64,000 bases of DNA from Escherichia coli (GTDB taxonomy: Bacteria > Pseudomonadota > Gammaproteobacteria > Enterobacterales > Enterobacteriaceae), in the NCBI RefSeq assembly GCF_003790525.1, contig NZ_CP033635.1; one strand, given 5' to 3'. The notes beneath the pieces are model-generated. The model was not told the DNA's origin, searched no databases, and worked only from the letters and a program-made list of their open reading frames with translations. The position numbers were made by a program, and so were the translations under genes. Positions 7,476 to 12,450 of the stretch are shown one piece after another (within the stretch, counting starts at the first letter, position 1; every line of letters begins with the position of its first letter).

Positions 7476-7488
7476 GTTCGCTAAAAAA

Positions 7489-7520
7489 CAGAACGGGGCC
7501 AAAAGGTCCCGTTTTTTTTC
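7489..7520 (+). terminator. rho-independent terminator downstream of glgP
   Basis: Imperfect GC-rich hairpin (acggggcc aaaa ggtcccgt) followed by T8 at 7512-7519. Confidence 0.6.
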
Positions 7521-7591
7521 GCCTTTATTTAGGAAAAGTGTCCAGAGGGGGCGAGGGTTATCGGGGAGTATAATTTCGCCATTCAGCAAGA

Positions 7592-9109
7592 ATGGAAAGA
7601 ATAATGCAAAACGGAAAATGGATTTTGACCTCGCTGGTAATGACTTTTTTTGGCATCCCCATACTGGCGCAATTTTTGGCAGCGGTTGTTGCCATGCTGG
7701 GGGCCGGGCTTGCCGCTATTTTTGATGTTTGCAATTTACTCTTTACGCCAACAATTTATCTTCTACTCAACGTCTTTATGCTGACGCTGGGCGCATTACT
7801 GCTATTTTTCTCTGGGCGAGTGTGGGCGGGCGATAGCGCACCAGAAAACAGAGAAATAGCCGCCTGGCGACAATGTCTTTTTTTAGTTCCCGCTTTATTA
7901 ACCCTGGTTGGCTGGATAATCACGCTACATCTGGCAGATTATCAATTTCGCCAGATGGTTTCAGGTTGGTTGGCAAACCTTATGCTTCCCTGGTTGGGCG
8001 TTTTTACAGTCTCATTCGTCGGTGGTGAGTACTGGTGGATAGTCATTATTCCCGTTGGCGCGCATATCAGTTTTTCACTGGGATACGGCTGGCCGACCAG
8101 ACACCCTTTAACCGGCACCTCCGGTCTACGTTGCCGTAATTTACTTCTGTTCATTCTTCTCTTACTGGGTATTGTCGCTGGTTATCAGGCTTATTTATAT
8201 AAACAGCTTAATCCCGGCGTCGGTGTGCGTGAAAATATTGATACCTGGGCCTGGCGACCCGATAAACTTAATAATCAACTGACGCCACTGCGTGGTAAAC
8301 CACAAATTCAATTTACGCAAAACTGGCCGCGACTCGATGGCGCTACGGCGGCGTACCCCATTTATGCCTCTGCATTTTATGCATTAAGTGTAATACCAGA
8401 GGATTTTCACGTTTGGGATTATCTGGATAACTCTCGTACGCAAGAAGCATATAACAAAATCGTTAAGGGCGATGCTGATATTATTTTCGTGGCGCAACCT
8501 TCCGATGGGCAAAAAAAACGCGCTGAGAAATCGGGCGTCACTTTGCTGTACACGCCATTTGCCCGTGAAGCGTTTGTTTTCATCGTCAATGCGGATAATC
8601 CGGTTAATTCCCTGACTGAACAACAAGTGCGTGACATTTTTAGTGGCGCAATTACCAACTGGCGCACGGTTGGCGGTAACGATCAGGAGATCCAGACCTG
8701 GCAACGCCCGGAAGACTCTGGCAGCCAGACAGTGATGCAATCGCAGGTCATGAAAAATGTCCGCATGATCTCGCCGCAGGAAACCGAAGTGGCAAGCATG
8801 ATGGAGGGAATGATTAAAGTCGTTGCCGAATACCGTAATACAAACAACGCAATAGGCTACACCTTCCGCTATTACGCAACACAAATGAATGCCGATAAAA
8901 ATATAAAACTGCTAGCGATTAACGGTATTGCACCGACTGCGGAAAATATTCGTAACGGCAAATATCCGTATATCATCGATGCCTTTATGGTAACGCGGGA
9001 AAATACTACGTCAGAAACACAAAAACTGGTCGAATGGTTTTTAACGCCGCAGGGACAGAGTCTGGTGGAAGATGTGGGCTATGTGCCGCTGTATCCAACA
9101 ATGAAATAA
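7592..9109 (+). CDS. membrane-anchored PstS-like (phosphate-binding-protein fold) protein: N-terminal polytopic TM domain plus C-terminal PBP domain
   Basis: 505-aa ORF (a second ATG at 7604 has a better-spaced GGAAAG RBS). Residues 1-210 carry about 5-6 hydrophobic helices; the C-terminal 270 aa show PstS-like motifs (AAYPIYASAFY, RPEDSGSQTVM, AIGYTFRYYA) that align with E. coli PstS (FPAPVYAKWA, DGSGTSFVFTSY, AIGYVEYAYA). Possible -10 TATAAT at 7568-7573. Confidence 0.7.
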   Translation: MERIMQNGKWILTSLVMTFFGIPILAQFLAAVVAMLGAGLAAIFDVCNLLFTPTIYLLLNVFMLTLGALLLFFSGRVWAGDSAPENREIAAWRQCLFLVPALLTLVGWIITLHLADYQFRQMVSGWLANLMLPWLGVFTVSFVGGEYWWIVIIPVGAHISFSLGYGWPTRHPLTGTSGLRCRNLLLFILLLLGIVAGYQAYLYKQLNPGVGVRENIDTWAWRPDKLNNQLTPLRGKPQIQFTQNWPRLDGATAAYPIYASAFYALSVIPEDFHVWDYLDNSRTQEAYNKIVKGDADIIFVAQPSDGQKKRAEKSGVTLLYTPFAREAFVFIVNADNPVNSLTEQQVRDIFSGAITNWRTVGGNDQEIQTWQRPEDSGSQTVMQSQVMKNVRMISPQETEVASMMEGMIKVVAEYRNTNNAIGYTFRYYATQMNADKNIKLLAINGIAPTAENIRNGKYPYIIDAFMVTRENTTSETQKLVEWFLTPQGQSLVEDVGYVPLYPTMK

Positions 9110-9134
9110 CGCTCGAGAGAAAGGAATCAGCGCA

Positions 9135-10127
9135 ATGAATAAATTCACCGGTGTTTTACTATTAGGTACGGCGCTACTGGCGGGATGTGTCGACCGGGAA
9201 GGGTACTATAACAGCGTCAGGGAAGAAGACAGCCATGGACTGACGTCTCTGCGGGGGCAACCTGAATTACGTTACAACGATGATTGGTCAAGATGGCCGA
9301 GAGTGTACGGCGCTACAGCCTTATACCCGCTGTATGCCTCCGCGTATTATGAATTAGTACCCGAGCCAAAAGATAAGGATCGAACCTCGCTGGCCTGGCA
9401 GGCGTATGGTTTGCAACAAACCCGAACAGCTGAAGCCTACGATAGTCTGATTAAGGGTACCGCGACGGTTATTTTTGTTGCACAACCGTCGGAAGGACAG
9501 AAAAAACGTGCAGAAGAAGCAGGTGTTAAACTCAAATATACCGCTTTCGCCCGCGAAGCCTTTGTCTTTATCGTTGATATCAAAAACCCGGTTAATTCAC
9601 TTAGCGAACAGCAGGTCAAAGACATTTTTAGCGGTAAAGTGAGTCGCTGGAATAAAGTGGGCGGCGGTGACGAAAGTATAAAAGTCTGGCAGCGGCCAGA
9701 AGATTCTGGAAGCCAAACGGTTATGAAGGGACTGGTTATGCAAGATACTCCAATGCTGCCAGCCAAAAAATCCACTGTTATCGATCTTATGGGCGGTTTA
9801 ATTACCGAAGTCGCCGACTACCAAAATACACCATCTTCTATTGGATACACCTTCCACTATTACGTCACACGTATGAATGACAATATGCTCAAAATGCGCA
9901 AACAGATCAAACTGCTGGCTATAAATGGCGTTGCACCTACAGAGGAAAATATCCGTAACGGCACTTATCCGTACATAATTCATGCTTATATGGTGACGCA
10001 CGAAAACCCTACGCTGGAAACGCAGAAATTCGTCGACTGGTTTTTAAGCCCGCAGGGACAGCAATTGGTAGAGGATGTGGGCTATGTGCCGATTTATGAC
10101 GCATCATCCGAATCATCAGGACAATAA
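9135..10127 (+). CDS. PstS-like substrate-binding lipoprotein, tandem paralog of the upstream gene
   Basis: 330-aa ORF; lipoprotein signal MNKFTGVLLLGTALLAGC (lipobox LAGC); mature part colinear with and clearly similar to the C-terminal domain of ORF 7592-9109 (ALYPLYASAYY, RPEDSGSQTVM, SIGYTFHYYV). Confidence 0.7.
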   Translation: MNKFTGVLLLGTALLAGCVDREGYYNSVREEDSHGLTSLRGQPELRYNDDWSRWPRVYGATALYPLYASAYYELVPEPKDKDRTSLAWQAYGLQQTRTAEAYDSLIKGTATVIFVAQPSEGQKKRAEEAGVKLKYTAFAREAFVFIVDIKNPVNSLSEQQVKDIFSGKVSRWNKVGGGDESIKVWQRPEDSGSQTVMKGLVMQDTPMLPAKKSTVIDLMGGLITEVADYQNTPSSIGYTFHYYVTRMNDNMLKMRKQIKLLAINGVAPTEENIRNGTYPYIIHAYMVTHENPTLETQKFVDWFLSPQGQQLVEDVGYVPIYDASSESSGQ

Positions 10128-10129
10128 AG

Positions 10130-10730
10130 ATGAATAAAATCAGACTTTATATTCCTCCGTTAATTCTTGGTTTTGTTATTGTGCCGTTGTTGGTGTGGCC
10201 GACGGTGGTTGCTCTGGCTGCTTGTGTTATCACGCTGAGTTTTATGGGAGAAATACTGTTCTCTATCCCGCTCATGTTCAGGCGTATTTCACTTCTGGAA
10301 TTCCAACTTGGGTTATTGGCTGAATATGCACTTTTTTTTTCTGTGCCATGTGTTGCGTTGGTTGGCAATTTTCTTGCAGAGCTCAATCTGAACTGAAAAG
10401 CAGACTCCATTGTTGGTTGGTATTTGCACCAGTTTATTTCTGGTTGCTCCTGTGGAATATCATTTTCTATGTCGCGCCAGCGCAAATTGCTTTGCTGGAA
10501 AATATGCGCAATTTCTTTCTGACCATTGTCTGGTTACCCCTGAATTTTTTCAATTTGGGTCTCAGCCGTGGACTGACTTTATCGGTCCGATAAGCGCCCA
10601 GCTTGGTTTTGCATTGGGATATTATTGCCAGTGGCGTAGCAAAAATAGAAGTCAGAGGAAGAAGTGGGGCGAGTGGGTAATGTGTCTGAGTTTTGTTACG
10701 TTGGGTATGATTGCGTGGGCTTTGCGGTAA
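10130..10730 (+). pseudogene. small integral membrane protein gene split over three reading frames (likely frameshift-inactivated), translationally coupled to the upstream PstS-like gene
   Basis: Three overlapping hydrophobic ORFs in three different frames (10130-10396, 10348-10593, 10410-10730). A T9 homopolymer at 10332-10340 sits exactly where restoring one T would join frame 1 to frame 2; a second one-base shift is needed before 10593 (a T6 run lies at 10545-10550). ATG 10130 is 2 nt after the upstream stop. Confidence 0.45.
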
Positions 10731-10855
10731 TTCCTTGAATCAAAAAGTAGGTCAGATTGTTGACGAAGTGCGCTTTGTTTATGCCGGATGCTGCGTGAAC
10801 GCCTTATTTTGTCTACAAAATCATGCAAATTCAATATATTGCATAAACCACGTAG

Positions 10856-10880
10856 GCCTGATAAGCGTAGCGCATCAGGC
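10856..10880. repeat. REP (repetitive extragenic palindrome) element, followed by a T7 run
   Basis: gcctgataagcgtagcgcatcaggc is a typical enterobacterial REP palindrome; T-run at 10883-10889 could terminate plus-strand transcripts. Confidence 0.5.
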
Positions 10881-10897
10881 AGTTTTTTTGTTTATCA

Positions 10898-10921
10898 TCA
10901 GTCTCAGGTCAGATTGAAATC
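10898..10921 (-). terminator. perfect inverted repeat downstream of glpD (candidate glpD terminator hairpin)
   Basis: ggtcagat tgaa atctgacc, 24 nt beyond the glpD stop; no strong U-tract on the glpD strand, so function is uncertain. Confidence 0.35.
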
Positions 10922-10944
10922 TGACCTGGCCACCTTACGTTAAT

Positions 10945-12450
10945 TTACGACGCCAGCGACAACTTCTGCTGCGTATACTCCACCAGCCACTGACTCACAC
11001 GAGATTGTTGATCCGCATTTAGCCACATGCCTTGTTTTGTGCGACGCCACAGGGCATCGTCGGCGCGACGGACCCATTCGTGATCCACCAGGTATTTCAG
11101 TTCCGCTTCGTAGAACTCATGACCGAAATCCTCCCCGAGGTCGCTTATCGCCCCCGCATTGCCGAGCAGCAGTTCGCTGTTGCTGCCGTAAGTGCGCGCG
11201 TAGTGACGTGCCAGCGATTCAGTCAGGAACGGGTAACGGCGGCGCAGGCGAGCGGCATAATCGTCGCGATCGCCTTCAATGGCACCACCCGGCAGCACGC
11301 TCTCTTTCGTCCACGCCGGGCCAATACCCTGATAATACGGCGTTAGTTTTTCCAGCGCATGTTCCGCCAGTTTGCGGTAGGTGGTCAGCTTACCGCCGAA
11401 TACCGACAGCAGCGGTGCTTTGCCGTTTTCGTCATGGATATCAAGGGTGTAATCACGGGTAATTGCCTGCGGCGAGTCGGACTCATCATCACACAGCGGA
11501 CGCACGCCGGAGTAAGTCCAGACGATATCGTCACGGCTTAGCTGCTTTTTAAAGTGCGTGTTATACACTTTCAGCAGGTAATTGATTTCACTCTCTTCAA
11601 TCTTCACGGCTTTCGGATCACCTTTGTATTCCACATCGGTGGTGCCGATGATGGAAAACTCGTCCATCCACGGGATCACGAACACAATACGTTTATCTTC
11701 GTTTTGCAGAATGTAGGCTTGCTTCTGGGTATGCACGCGTGGCACCACAATATGGCTGCCTTTGATCAGGCGAATGCCATAAGGTGAAGGCAGATGCATC
11801 CCGTCGTCGAAAAATTGTTTCACCCACGGGCCGGTGGCGTTCACCAGGCCGCGCGCCTGCCAGGTGTATTTTTTGCCGGTATCGATATCTTCTGCTTCCA
11901 CAATCCACAGGCCGTTTTCGCGGCGAGCAGAAGTGGCACGAGTACGAGTAAGCACTTCACCGCCTTTACGTACCACCATCTGGGCGTTGGCGAGTACCAG
12001 ACGGGCGTCGTCTACCCAACAGTCAGAATATTCGAATCCGCGCTTAATTTCCGGTTTTAACACTGAGTTTGCGCCAAAACGCAAACCGGTTGATCCCGGC
12101 AGGCTGGTGCGTTTACCCAGATGATCGTACATAAACAGACCAATGCGAATCATCCACGCCGGGCGCAGATGCGGACGATGTGGCAGGCGAAAACGCATCG
12201 GGAAGGCGATATGCGGAGCCATTTTCAGCAACACTTCACGTTCAGCCAGCGCCTCGCTGACCAGGCGGAATTCATAGTGCTCAAGGTAGCGCAGGCCACC
12301 GTGAATGAGTTTTGAACTGGCGGAAGAGGTCGCGCAAGCGAGATCCTGCGCCTCCAGCATCAGCACGGATAAACCGCGTCCAGCGGCGTCTGCCGCGATA
12401 CCAGCACCATTGATGCCGCCACCTATCACAATCAGATCTTTGATTTCCAT
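10945..12450 (-). CDS. glpD: aerobic glycerol-3-phosphate dehydrogenase (501 aa)
   Basis: Track ORF extends to 12465; start trimmed to the Met of MEIKDLIVIGGGINGAGIAADAAGRG (FAD-binding GxGxxG). Confidence 0.95.
   Translation of the reverse strand: MEIKDLIVIGGGINGAGIAADAAGRGLSVLMLEAQDLACATSSASSKLIHGGLRYLEHYEFRLVSEALAEREVLLKMAPHIAFPMRFRLPHRPHLRPAWMIRIGLFMYDHLGKRTSLPGSTGLRFGANSVLKPEIKRGFEYSDCWVDDARLVLANAQMVVRKGGEVLTRTRATSARRENGLWIVEAEDIDTGKKYTWQARGLVNATGPWVKQFFDDGMHLPSPYGIRLIKGSHIVVPRVHTQKQAYILQNEDKRIVFVIPWMDEFSIIGTTDVEYKGDPKAVKIEESEINYLLKVYNTHFKKQLSRDDIVWTYSGVRPLCDDESDSPQAITRDYTLDIHDENGKAPLLSVFGGKLTTYRKLAEHALEKLTPYYQGIGPAWTKESVLPGGAIEGDRDDYAARLRRRYPFLTESLARHYARTYGSNSELLLGNAGAISDLGEDFGHEFYEAELKYLVDHEWVRRADDALWRRTKQGMWLNADQQSRVSQWLVEYTQQKLSLAS

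Follow-up and report, generated by a model that had tools for sequence, protein, structure and literature searches.

What kind of protein is encoded by a gene that the databases name PstS but whose binding domain is preceded by a multi-helix membrane domain in place of a signal peptide? The question is raised by a gene of Escherichia coli SMS-3-5, found in a 64,000-nucleotide stretch of contig NZ_CP033635.1 (assembly GCF_003790525.1), hereafter the window, of which 3469 bases are 100% identical to that strain. The gene, ORF1 (open reading frame 1; 7592-9109, + strand, 505 residues), lies between glgP and glpD as the first member of a three-gene islet, the local order being glgX-glgC-glgA-glgP, the islet, glpD (on the opposite strand) and glpE-glpG-glpR. 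RefSeq carries it in the same frame from 7601 with 502 residues (WP_122991685.1), as a 'PstS family phosphate ABC transporter substrate-binding protein' (ABC, ATP-binding cassette). It gives the identical name to ORF2 (9135-10127, 330 residues) and labels ORF3 (10130-10730) a frameshifted 'hypothetical protein'. Here we report that ORF1 encodes a real protein of the inner membrane, from a family that is old and uncharacterised, and that it does not serve as the binding component of a Pst ABC transporter. We further develop, at about even confidence, a reading of it as a membrane-docked receptor that acts through its own membrane domain.

A polytopic membrane domain joined to a PstS-type binding domain

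An earlier note on this DNA had proposed that the PstS-like domain follows a membrane domain of several helices, and the proposal stands. Residues 1-206 constitute a polytopic membrane domain with four hydrophobic stretches (residues 11-44, 54-73, 96-114 and 184-203), while residues ~246-501 form the PstS-type PBP_like_2 domain; the Pfam model of the latter (PF12849) matches residues 249-485 with an E-value of 5e-31, and nothing significant is detected before residue 240. AlphaFold2 modelling, which the same note had recommended, yielded confident models both for the full-length protein (from a 74-sequence alignment; predicted local distance difference test score, pLDDT, 89.9; predicted template modelling score, pTM, 0.80) and for the membrane domain alone (pLDDT 90.9, pTM 0.87). 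The modelled helices span residues 2-47, 53-81 and 87-114, followed by short helices at 119-122, 125-130 and 132-144 and by two further long helices at 149-169 and 177-206.

The topology was deduced from hydropathy, from the loop charge across 74 homologs and from the AlphaFold2 models. Segments rich in Lys and Arg, namely the N-terminus (1.8 such residues in about 6), the loop 75-93 (3.4) and the loop 166-183 (4.3), alternate with the Lys/Arg-poor loops 45-53, 115-124 and 143-148. This alternation leaves a single consistent arrangement, with the N-terminus inside, five crossings, and both the segment 119-144 and the binding domain in the periplasm. As the loop charges demand that the chain cross the membrane an odd number of times from residue 115 to 166, the short helices of that segment are not counted as a crossing. 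The periplasmic placing of the binding domain also agrees with the ORF2 paralog being a lipoprotein. ORF1 therefore fits a predicted N-in, C-out protein with five spanning helices, whose cytoplasmic parts would be limited to the N-terminal ~9 residues and the two Lys/Arg-rich loops, the chain ending in the periplasmic domain. A cleavable signal peptide as the sole N-terminal feature is contradicted by the modelled helices together with the loop charges. Nor does export as a soluble or lipid-anchored protein apply to ORF1: five predicted spanning helices precede the domain and only ORF2 has a lipobox, so that, as the earlier note had held, this is no free or lipid-anchored binding protein but a domain permanently attached to a multi-helix membrane domain.

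Conservation within the family is concentrated at P23, G75, R93, W108, P133, W148, a motif in helix 4, Q199 and, in the linker that follows, E214, mostly in the periplasmic half of the membrane domain. The best-conserved motif is that of helix 4, I-P-V-G-x-Q/H-x-x-F-x-L-G-Y. ORF1 displays the entire family signature: a Pro in helix 1, G-x-x-W-x-R after helix 2, the periplasmic P-W, the helix-4 motif and W-Q in helix 5. The family alignments contain no invariant acidic, basic or hydroxyl residue within the membrane.

The fused architecture is old and both halves are maintained

Full-length homologs of 490-517 residues and 36-55% identity, in which the N-terminal half is in frame with the rest, occur in Escherichia albertii, Klebsiella, Salmonella, Intestinirhabdus, Phytobacter, Leclercia, Leminorella, Limnobaculum/Budvicia and Brachymonas. 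A pattern scan with one genome per species recovered more than 579 relatives of the binding domain, and open reading frames were rebuilt at 79 retained loci. Nearly all of these 79 loci show an N-terminal multi-helix extension, which falls into two size classes. The long form (about 485-520 residues, with an extension of ~230-260) is distributed across Pseudomonadota, including the betaproteobacterial Brachymonas/Saezia, and Bacillota, Actinomycetota, Planctomycetota and Synergistota; the extensions from the other phyla match the enterobacterial membrane profile with 99.8% probability (E 1e-28, 203 columns). On the evidence of these homologs, the fusion of membrane and binding domains is old and widespread and no recent event in E. 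coli. The short form (about 380-400 residues, extension of ~125-145) is found mainly in Bacillales. We considered whether it carries the same anchor and rejected this: the hhalign probability is only 17.6%, with no detectable homology, and its anchor is a different one of 2-4 helices.

Of 5426 complete E. coli genomes, 3347 (62%) carry ORF1 as one intact copy. The ratio of nonsynonymous to synonymous substitution rates (dN/dS) between E. coli alleles lies at 0.21-0.24 in the membrane half and at 0.09-0.27 in the binding half: both halves are under purifying selection. Genomes of the K-12 type retain only the first ~235 bases of the gene at the same glgP-glpD site, annotated as the pseudogene yzgL, whose coding sequence comprises the first ~74 codons (transmembrane helices 1 and 2); the rest of the gene and of the islet is lost there. 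This reduction is probably why the family has never been studied.

These data also bear on the most deflationary account, in which the hydrophobic region is an annotation artefact lying upstream of the real start, or the gene is a decaying remnant comparable to yzgL. The K-12 stump, the frameshifted neighbour ORF3 in SMS-3-5 and some uncertainty of the start codon could be cited for it. However, the start is ambiguous only across the first five codons (ATG at 7592, ATA at 7601 as chosen by RefSeq, or ATG at 7604 preceded by GGAAAG), the gene is intact in most E. coli genomes and kept at full length across genera and phyla, the membrane half is under selection and the models are confident. A start downstream of the hydrophobic region is unneeded given the full-length homologs and the membrane-half dN/dS, and we accord this account next to no probability.

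The membrane domain is an unrecognised family with a stand-alone paralog

Pfam holds no family for residues 1-240 of ORF1 or of 38 homologs, matches being confined to noise such as Tetraspanin at E 0.03; NCBIfam likewise has none for the ORF1 membrane domain, and solved structures offer no match to its fold. When residues 1-228 were searched alone with phmmer against 1.8 billion representative proteins, as the earlier note had advised for the N-terminal region, only the domain's own family was retrieved, mostly as fragments, and a profile search with the family alignment returned fragments only and no new architecture. Foldseek against AFDB50 recovered proteins of the same architecture, including those of Bacillota at 15-23% identity, along with a few stand-alone proteins of ~200 residues, beyond which the scores collapse. 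Across these searches the domain is found alone or with PBP_like_2 and never with another recognised domain.

A stand-alone gene for such a domain, whose existence the earlier note had wanted checked, is present in the islet itself. ORF3 is intact elsewhere as a 200-residue protein (for example in strain 350), and its family, which has no Pfam match, is restricted to Escherichia. The SMS-3-5 copy differs from the intact strain 350 gene, in a DNA alignment, by 2 additional bp in a T-run near 10335 and by the loss of 1 bp near 10551. While BLASTP of ORF3 against the ORF1 membrane domain is marginal (E 0.008), hhalign aligns the two collinearly over 160 columns, with a score of 67, E 2e-10 and a probability of 96.8%; the reversed profile scored 17.5 and ten block-shuffled profiles 22-24. 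The helix-4 motif of ORF1 recurs in the stand-alone paralog (GPISAQLGFALGYY). ORF3 is not tied to ORF2, for it is retained where two unrelated genes replace ORF2 and also where a fimbrial operon replaces ORF1. The conservation of the membrane domain across phyla, its invariant P23, W108 and Q199, the PVGxQxxFxLGY helix, its occurrence only with PBP_like_2 or alone and the existence of a paralog as a separate gene together argue that this domain is more than an anchor.

A PstS-type fold with partly retained pocket motifs

The closest sequence matches of the binding domain in the PDB are the phosphate binders 4q8r and 4gd5 (1e-19 for the sequence alone, 1e-25 when the family profile is used), and the top 33 Foldseek matches to the PDB are all phosphate-binding proteins. 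E. coli PstS itself appears only at ranks 24-26, with ~17% identity in the structural alignment. The motifs of the domain are G250-A-T-A, T283, A301-Q-P-S304 and R372-P-E-D-S-G-S-Q379. In a profile alignment to phosphate-bound 4gd5, the GSTS, SS, ASR and R...SGTR motifs of the latter correspond to GATA, TP, AQP and R...SGSQ in ORF1: T252, T283, R372 and S376-G377-S378 are kept, while the Ser of GSTS is replaced by A251, the Arg of ASR by P303 and the Arg of SGTR by Q379. Across the family all of these positions vary little or not at all, suggesting a defined pocket under selection.

Is ORF1 then a tethered auxiliary PstS, in which the membrane domain is a mere anchor and the binding domain feeds PstCAB or modulates PhoR? 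The proximity to phosphate-binding proteins speaks for this, as does the fact that PstS proteins act on other membrane proteins, such as the chemoreceptor CtpL in Pseudomonas aeruginosa (PMC8050422). However, a five-helix domain with invariant residues across phyla and a stand-alone paralog exceeds the needs of an anchor, for which a lipobox suffices, as in ORF2. The domain is moreover of the TIGR02136 type, scoring 124.8 bits for ORF1 and 122.5 bits for ORF2, both below the cut-off of 206.6, and TIGR00975 has no match to ORF1. With its low identity to E. coli PstS, docking on the E. coli PstCA is doubtful. There is neither a Pho box nor a pst gene nearby: pstC, pstA, pstB or any permease are absent within about 6 kb of the gene in E. 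coli, Klebsiella, Salmonella, Limnobaculum, Leclercia and Brachymonas. The sub-threshold score and the missing pstCAB neighbours bear out the view that ORF1 does not belong to a classical Pst transporter, and we regard the auxiliary role as quite unlikely.

The lipoprotein paralog and the order of events

ORF2 is 59% identical to ORF1, and this over residues 230-501 only, so that the membrane domain indeed has no similarity to the lipoprotein paralog. The earlier note had gone on to suppose that a duplication was followed by fusion. This is not supported: the fused form recurs across phyla, whereas proteins with a genuine lipobox are confined to Escherichia, Salmonella and their near kin. When the binding domains are placed in a neighbour-joining tree, computed without bootstrap support, these lipoproteins form a single clade inside the enterobacterial fused proteins, with the fused proteins of Salmonella (P0115), Leclercia, Leminorella, Budviciaceae, Brachymonas and other phyla branching outside. 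The nesting of this clade among fused proteins and the cross-phylum range of the fused form make it suggestive that the lipoprotein form is the derived one, having probably arisen by loss of the membrane domain.

A 5'-truncated fused homolog of 350 residues from Superficieibacter electus (P0066) retains a remnant of helix 5 (...LVLSGCYAAWQ...) that is lipobox-like, which hints at a possible route from the fused form to a lipoprotein. The idea that the ORF2 signal peptide is itself a relic of transmembrane helix 5 was rejected, as the local alignment score of 24 was equalled in 285 of 1000 shuffles.

A variable islet between glgP and glpD

The features of the islet are collected in Table 1. The hairpin past the glgP stop has an 11-bp stem and a folding energy of -17.3 kcal/mol (z -3.5), with none of 200 shuffles equally stable; its stability and U-run suggest that the islet is probably transcribed on its own, apart from the glg operon. 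A TATAAT hexamer lies at 7569-7574, with no obvious -35 element.

Table 1. Features of the ORF1 islet in the window (TM, transmembrane; AF2, AlphaFold2)
Feature	Coordinates	Strand	Basis
Terminator-like hairpin with U-run, just past the glgP stop	7490..7519	+	RNA fold, sequence reading
ORF1, membrane domain and PstS-type binding domain	7592..9109	+	ORF list, RefSeq, Pfam, homologs, AF2
Predicted TM helix 1, ~residues 10-44, in to out, invariant P23	7619..7723	+	AF2, hydropathy/charge of 74 homologs, invariant columns
Predicted TM helix 2, ~residues 53-75, then K/R-rich cytoplasmic loop 75-93 (conserved G75-x-x-W, R93)	7748..7816	+	
Predicted TM helix 3, ~residues 93-114, invariant W108	7868..7933	+	
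Short helices 119-144, predicted periplasmic side, conserved P133-W134	7946..8023	+	AF2 and loop charge
Predicted TM helix 4, ~residues 149-167, then K/R-rich cytoplasmic loop 166-183	8036..8092	+	
Predicted TM helix 5, ~residues 183-204, invariant Q199, in to out, into periplasmic linker	8138..8203	+	
Ordered linker, residues 205-245, near-invariant E214, P223, L230	8204..8326	+	pLDDT 79-96 (full-length model), conservation
Periplasmic PstS-type class-II binding domain, residues ~246-501	8327..9094	+	Pfam, PDB profile matches, Foldseek
ORF2, lipoprotein paralog of the binding domain, 330 residues	9135..10127	+	Alignment to ORF1, lipobox LLAG-C18, +2 Val
ORF3, stand-alone paralog of the ORF1 membrane domain, pseudogene here	10130..10730	+	RefSeq, DNA alignment, hhalign

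In a comparison of E. coli strains over 7476-11444, ORF1, ORF2 and ORF3 are 90.6%, 91.5% and 87.8% identical, whereas glgP reaches 97.8% in its last 500 bp and glpD 93.6% at its 3' end; the synonymous divergence (dS) within ORF1 is ~0.3. The SMS-3-5 allele is rare, an identity of at least 99% being found in 25 of the 4635 matching genomes. Comparison of positions 7476-10944 of the window with four other loci (L003, L004, L005 and L095) identifies the glgP-glpD interval as a cassette site. In some strains ORF2 is replaced by a 236-residue protein, the N-terminal 45 residues of which are YbbD-like, and a 255-residue protein, neither with a Pfam match. In other strains a fimbrial operon takes the place of ORF1, and the 236-/255-residue pair is retained together with a 201-residue membrane protein. 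The right junction of the cassette of the E10 type falls within the last ~10 codons of ORF2, and both ORFs end in ...YDASSES...

Downstream of the fused gene, YbbD-type genes are present in Klebsiella, Salmonella and E. coli E10 (L006 7838-8958; L008 7564-8109; L003 3147-3857). Their head part begins with a lipobox-like LTAC and is a separate ORF in Klebsiella; its first ~45 residues recur on differing C-terminal parts, which suggests a polymorphic, modular gene. In Salmonella enterica DBHMGN010000006.1 (L014 1-12993) an island encodes two lipoprotein paralogs of the binding domain, along with a 135-residue HExxH protein, after which comes a lipoprotein, an Ntox34 fragment, a YibA-like HEAT protein (PRK09687, 388 bits), a Sel1-like protein and a number of further lipoproteins, a layout typical of orphan effector/immunity islands. 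STM3527 and STM3528 are presumably the Salmonella LT2 tags of genes of the family studied here.

Such contexts raise the possibility of an envelope-protection or immunity-type protein that neutralises or excludes a toxin acting on the periplasm or the membrane. The islet resembles a cassette and diverges very strongly (88-92% identity, where glgP has 97.8%, with dS about 0.3), unrelated genes replace ORF2, YbbD-type genes follow the fused gene, and the Salmonella paralogs keep the company just described. However, outside Enterobacteriaceae the gene is single-copy among housekeeping genes and free of toxin context, both of its domains are under purifying selection, PADLOC has no match for ORF1-3 or the neighbouring genes, and no cognate toxin was identified. 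The strict conservation of the anion-pocket motifs across phyla also fits the binding of a ligand better than that of a toxin. An immunity function is, in our judgement, very unlikely.

Genomic neighbours and the case for transport

No ABC ATPase gene is adjacent at the E. coli, Klebsiella, Salmonella, Limnobaculum and Leclercia loci. All-against-all clustering of the ORFs within 6 kb at the ~65 analysable loci among the 79 of the species scan brought out no recurrent neighbour, be it pst, ATPase, kinase, regulator or other, the largest cluster consisting of mixed ABC ATPases at scattered distances. There is no signalling neighbour at any long-form locus, no cytoplasmic output domain in ORF1 and no family member with another Pfam domain. 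The earlier note had seen in ORF1 a possible membrane-tethered sensor or transport accessory, for which neither an output domain nor a conserved partner came to light.

Individual loci show a variety of settings. In Leclercia (L012/L013 7625-8449) the fused homolog is followed after 128 bp by a gene for polyphosphate kinase 2 (PPK2); in Brachymonas (L010 2074-2979) such a gene lies ~3 kb upstream of the homolog, which there shares 11 nt with the end of ruvB. P0115, the distant homolog of Salmonella, has its place between ruvC and a yebB-like gene. Among short-form genes, those of Paenibacillus (L036, L044 and L072) come directly after, and with their start overlapping, a ~430-residue polytopic histidine-kinase-like gene, and those of Psychrobacillus/Sporosarcina (L045, L053, L054, L056 and L073) begin 17 bp after a 150-residue XRE-type helix-turn-helix gene.

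By analogy with TRAP, TTT and TAXI-GltS, ORF1 could belong to a new kind of binding-protein-dependent secondary transporter or channel, in which the five-helix domain, probably oligomeric, would be the translocation path. In its favour, a substrate-binding protein is permanently coupled to a conserved polytopic domain with neither ATPase nor permease as neighbour, new pairings of such proteins with membrane components are still emerging (PMC12344293), and the PPK2 genes in Leclercia and Brachymonas provide a weak link to phosphate metabolism. Against it, there are only five helices, these lack the conserved charged or hydroxyl residues expected for phosphate conduction, and the PPK2 linkage is seen in 2 contexts only and was not recovered by neighbour clustering. 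We therefore consider transport of this kind unlikely.

A proposed docked receptor at the periplasmic face of the membrane

The reading that we find about evenly balanced takes ORF1 to be a receptor docked at the membrane, which would act via its own membrane domain and have as its ligand a phosphate-type oxyanion or phosphoryl group. Most of its weight lies on what the protein is and less on the last step, the relay within the membrane. The pTM of 0.80 for the full-length model and the ordered linker suggest a fixed arrangement of the two domains, and the binding domain would accordingly rest against its own membrane domain, on a periplasmic face that would bear the conserved W108, P133-W134, W148 and Q199, with E214 in the linker. 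There, in the periplasm, the binding domain would close on this ligand, and the membrane domain would relay this event within the membrane, either to a partner or by handing over the ligand. The protein would thus be a self-contained, ATP-independent docked receptor rather than a freely diffusing shuttle.

A bolder version, which is a long shot, would have the five-helix and PstS-like domains form a hitherto unrecognised, ATP-independent machine that handles a phosphorylated ligand on the outer side of the cytoplasmic membrane, with a range from E. coli to Bacillota and Actinomycetota. This could represent a new class of binding-protein-dependent transporter, or else the pocket may grip the head group of a lipid phosphate (polyprenyl phosphate or a phospholipid) while the helices hold its tail.

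Several observations weigh against the docked receptor. The membrane domain lacks conserved charged or polar residues of the type found in anion pathways, bar R93 at the cytoplasmic boundary and two Gln, and with cytoplasmic loops of at most 19 residues there is no obvious route for inward signalling. P303 and Q379 take the positions of the Arg of ASR and of SGTR in 4gd5, and the ligand may therefore be other than free phosphate. The Pho box consensus, allowing up to 3 mismatches, matches nowhere in the window. The ORF3-type paralog persists in strains with neither periplasmic binding protein gene at the locus, implying that the two modules need not always act together, and in Enterobacteriaceae the gene is part of an islet of very high variability. 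No functional study, ligand, partner or phenotype emerged from literature searches on yzgL, membrane-fused or orphan PstS and related names.

What the gene signifies depends on this choice. The database name 'PstS' fits half of ORF1 and implies a transporter that is absent. If the halves do cooperate, the protein would represent a new coupling of binding protein and membrane, or a new phosphate-related route of sensing or uptake; if it is merely a spare tethered PstS, the result is an ordinary one.

Comparison with known systems

The sequence of ORF1 is already in the databases, while its architecture, the membrane-domain family and the stand-alone paralog appear to be undescribed. The nearest known relative is the PstS component of PstSCAB, of the TIGR02136 branch (4gd5 and 4q8r of Clostridium perfringens, 1twy of Vibrio cholerae and 9l8j, Sll0540), with which the C-terminal 260 residues of ORF1 share the class-II fold and, in part, the pocket motifs: G-A-T-A for G-S-T-S, T283 for a Ser and R372...S-G-S for R...S-G-T. 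ORF1 differs in having a 206-residue polytopic domain instead of a signal peptide or lipobox, in falling below the family cut-off and in the absence of pstC, pstA and pstB from the loci examined.

In ABC importers of the OpuA and GlnPQ type the substrate-binding domain is fused to the permease. ORF1 resembles them in that the binding domain is covalently mounted on a polytopic membrane domain, so that the receptor cannot diffuse off; however, it has neither a BPD_transp-type signature nor an ATPase gene, its membrane domain comes first and it has five helices only. TRAP DctPQM, TTT TctABC and TAXI-GltS combine a periplasmic binding protein with a non-ABC membrane component and are ATP-independent (PMC5812351 and PMC12344293). 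The binding domain of ORF1 is of the PstS type and not of the DctP, TctC or TAXI type, DctQM, TctAB and GltS give no fold match to the five-helix domain, and transport by ORF1 is only proposed.

PstS-type proteins are also known in signalling, PstS acting on the chemoreceptor CtpL (PMC8050422). ORF1 is alike in that a PstS-type domain is used outside a transporter, and short-form relatives stand beside kinase-like or XRE-type genes; unlike sensor kinases, chemoreceptors and cyclases, it has no cytoplasmic output or transmitter domain. The comparison closest at hand is with YzgL of K-12, which is the same gene: K-12 has a stump only, and SMS-3-5 keeps the gene in full.

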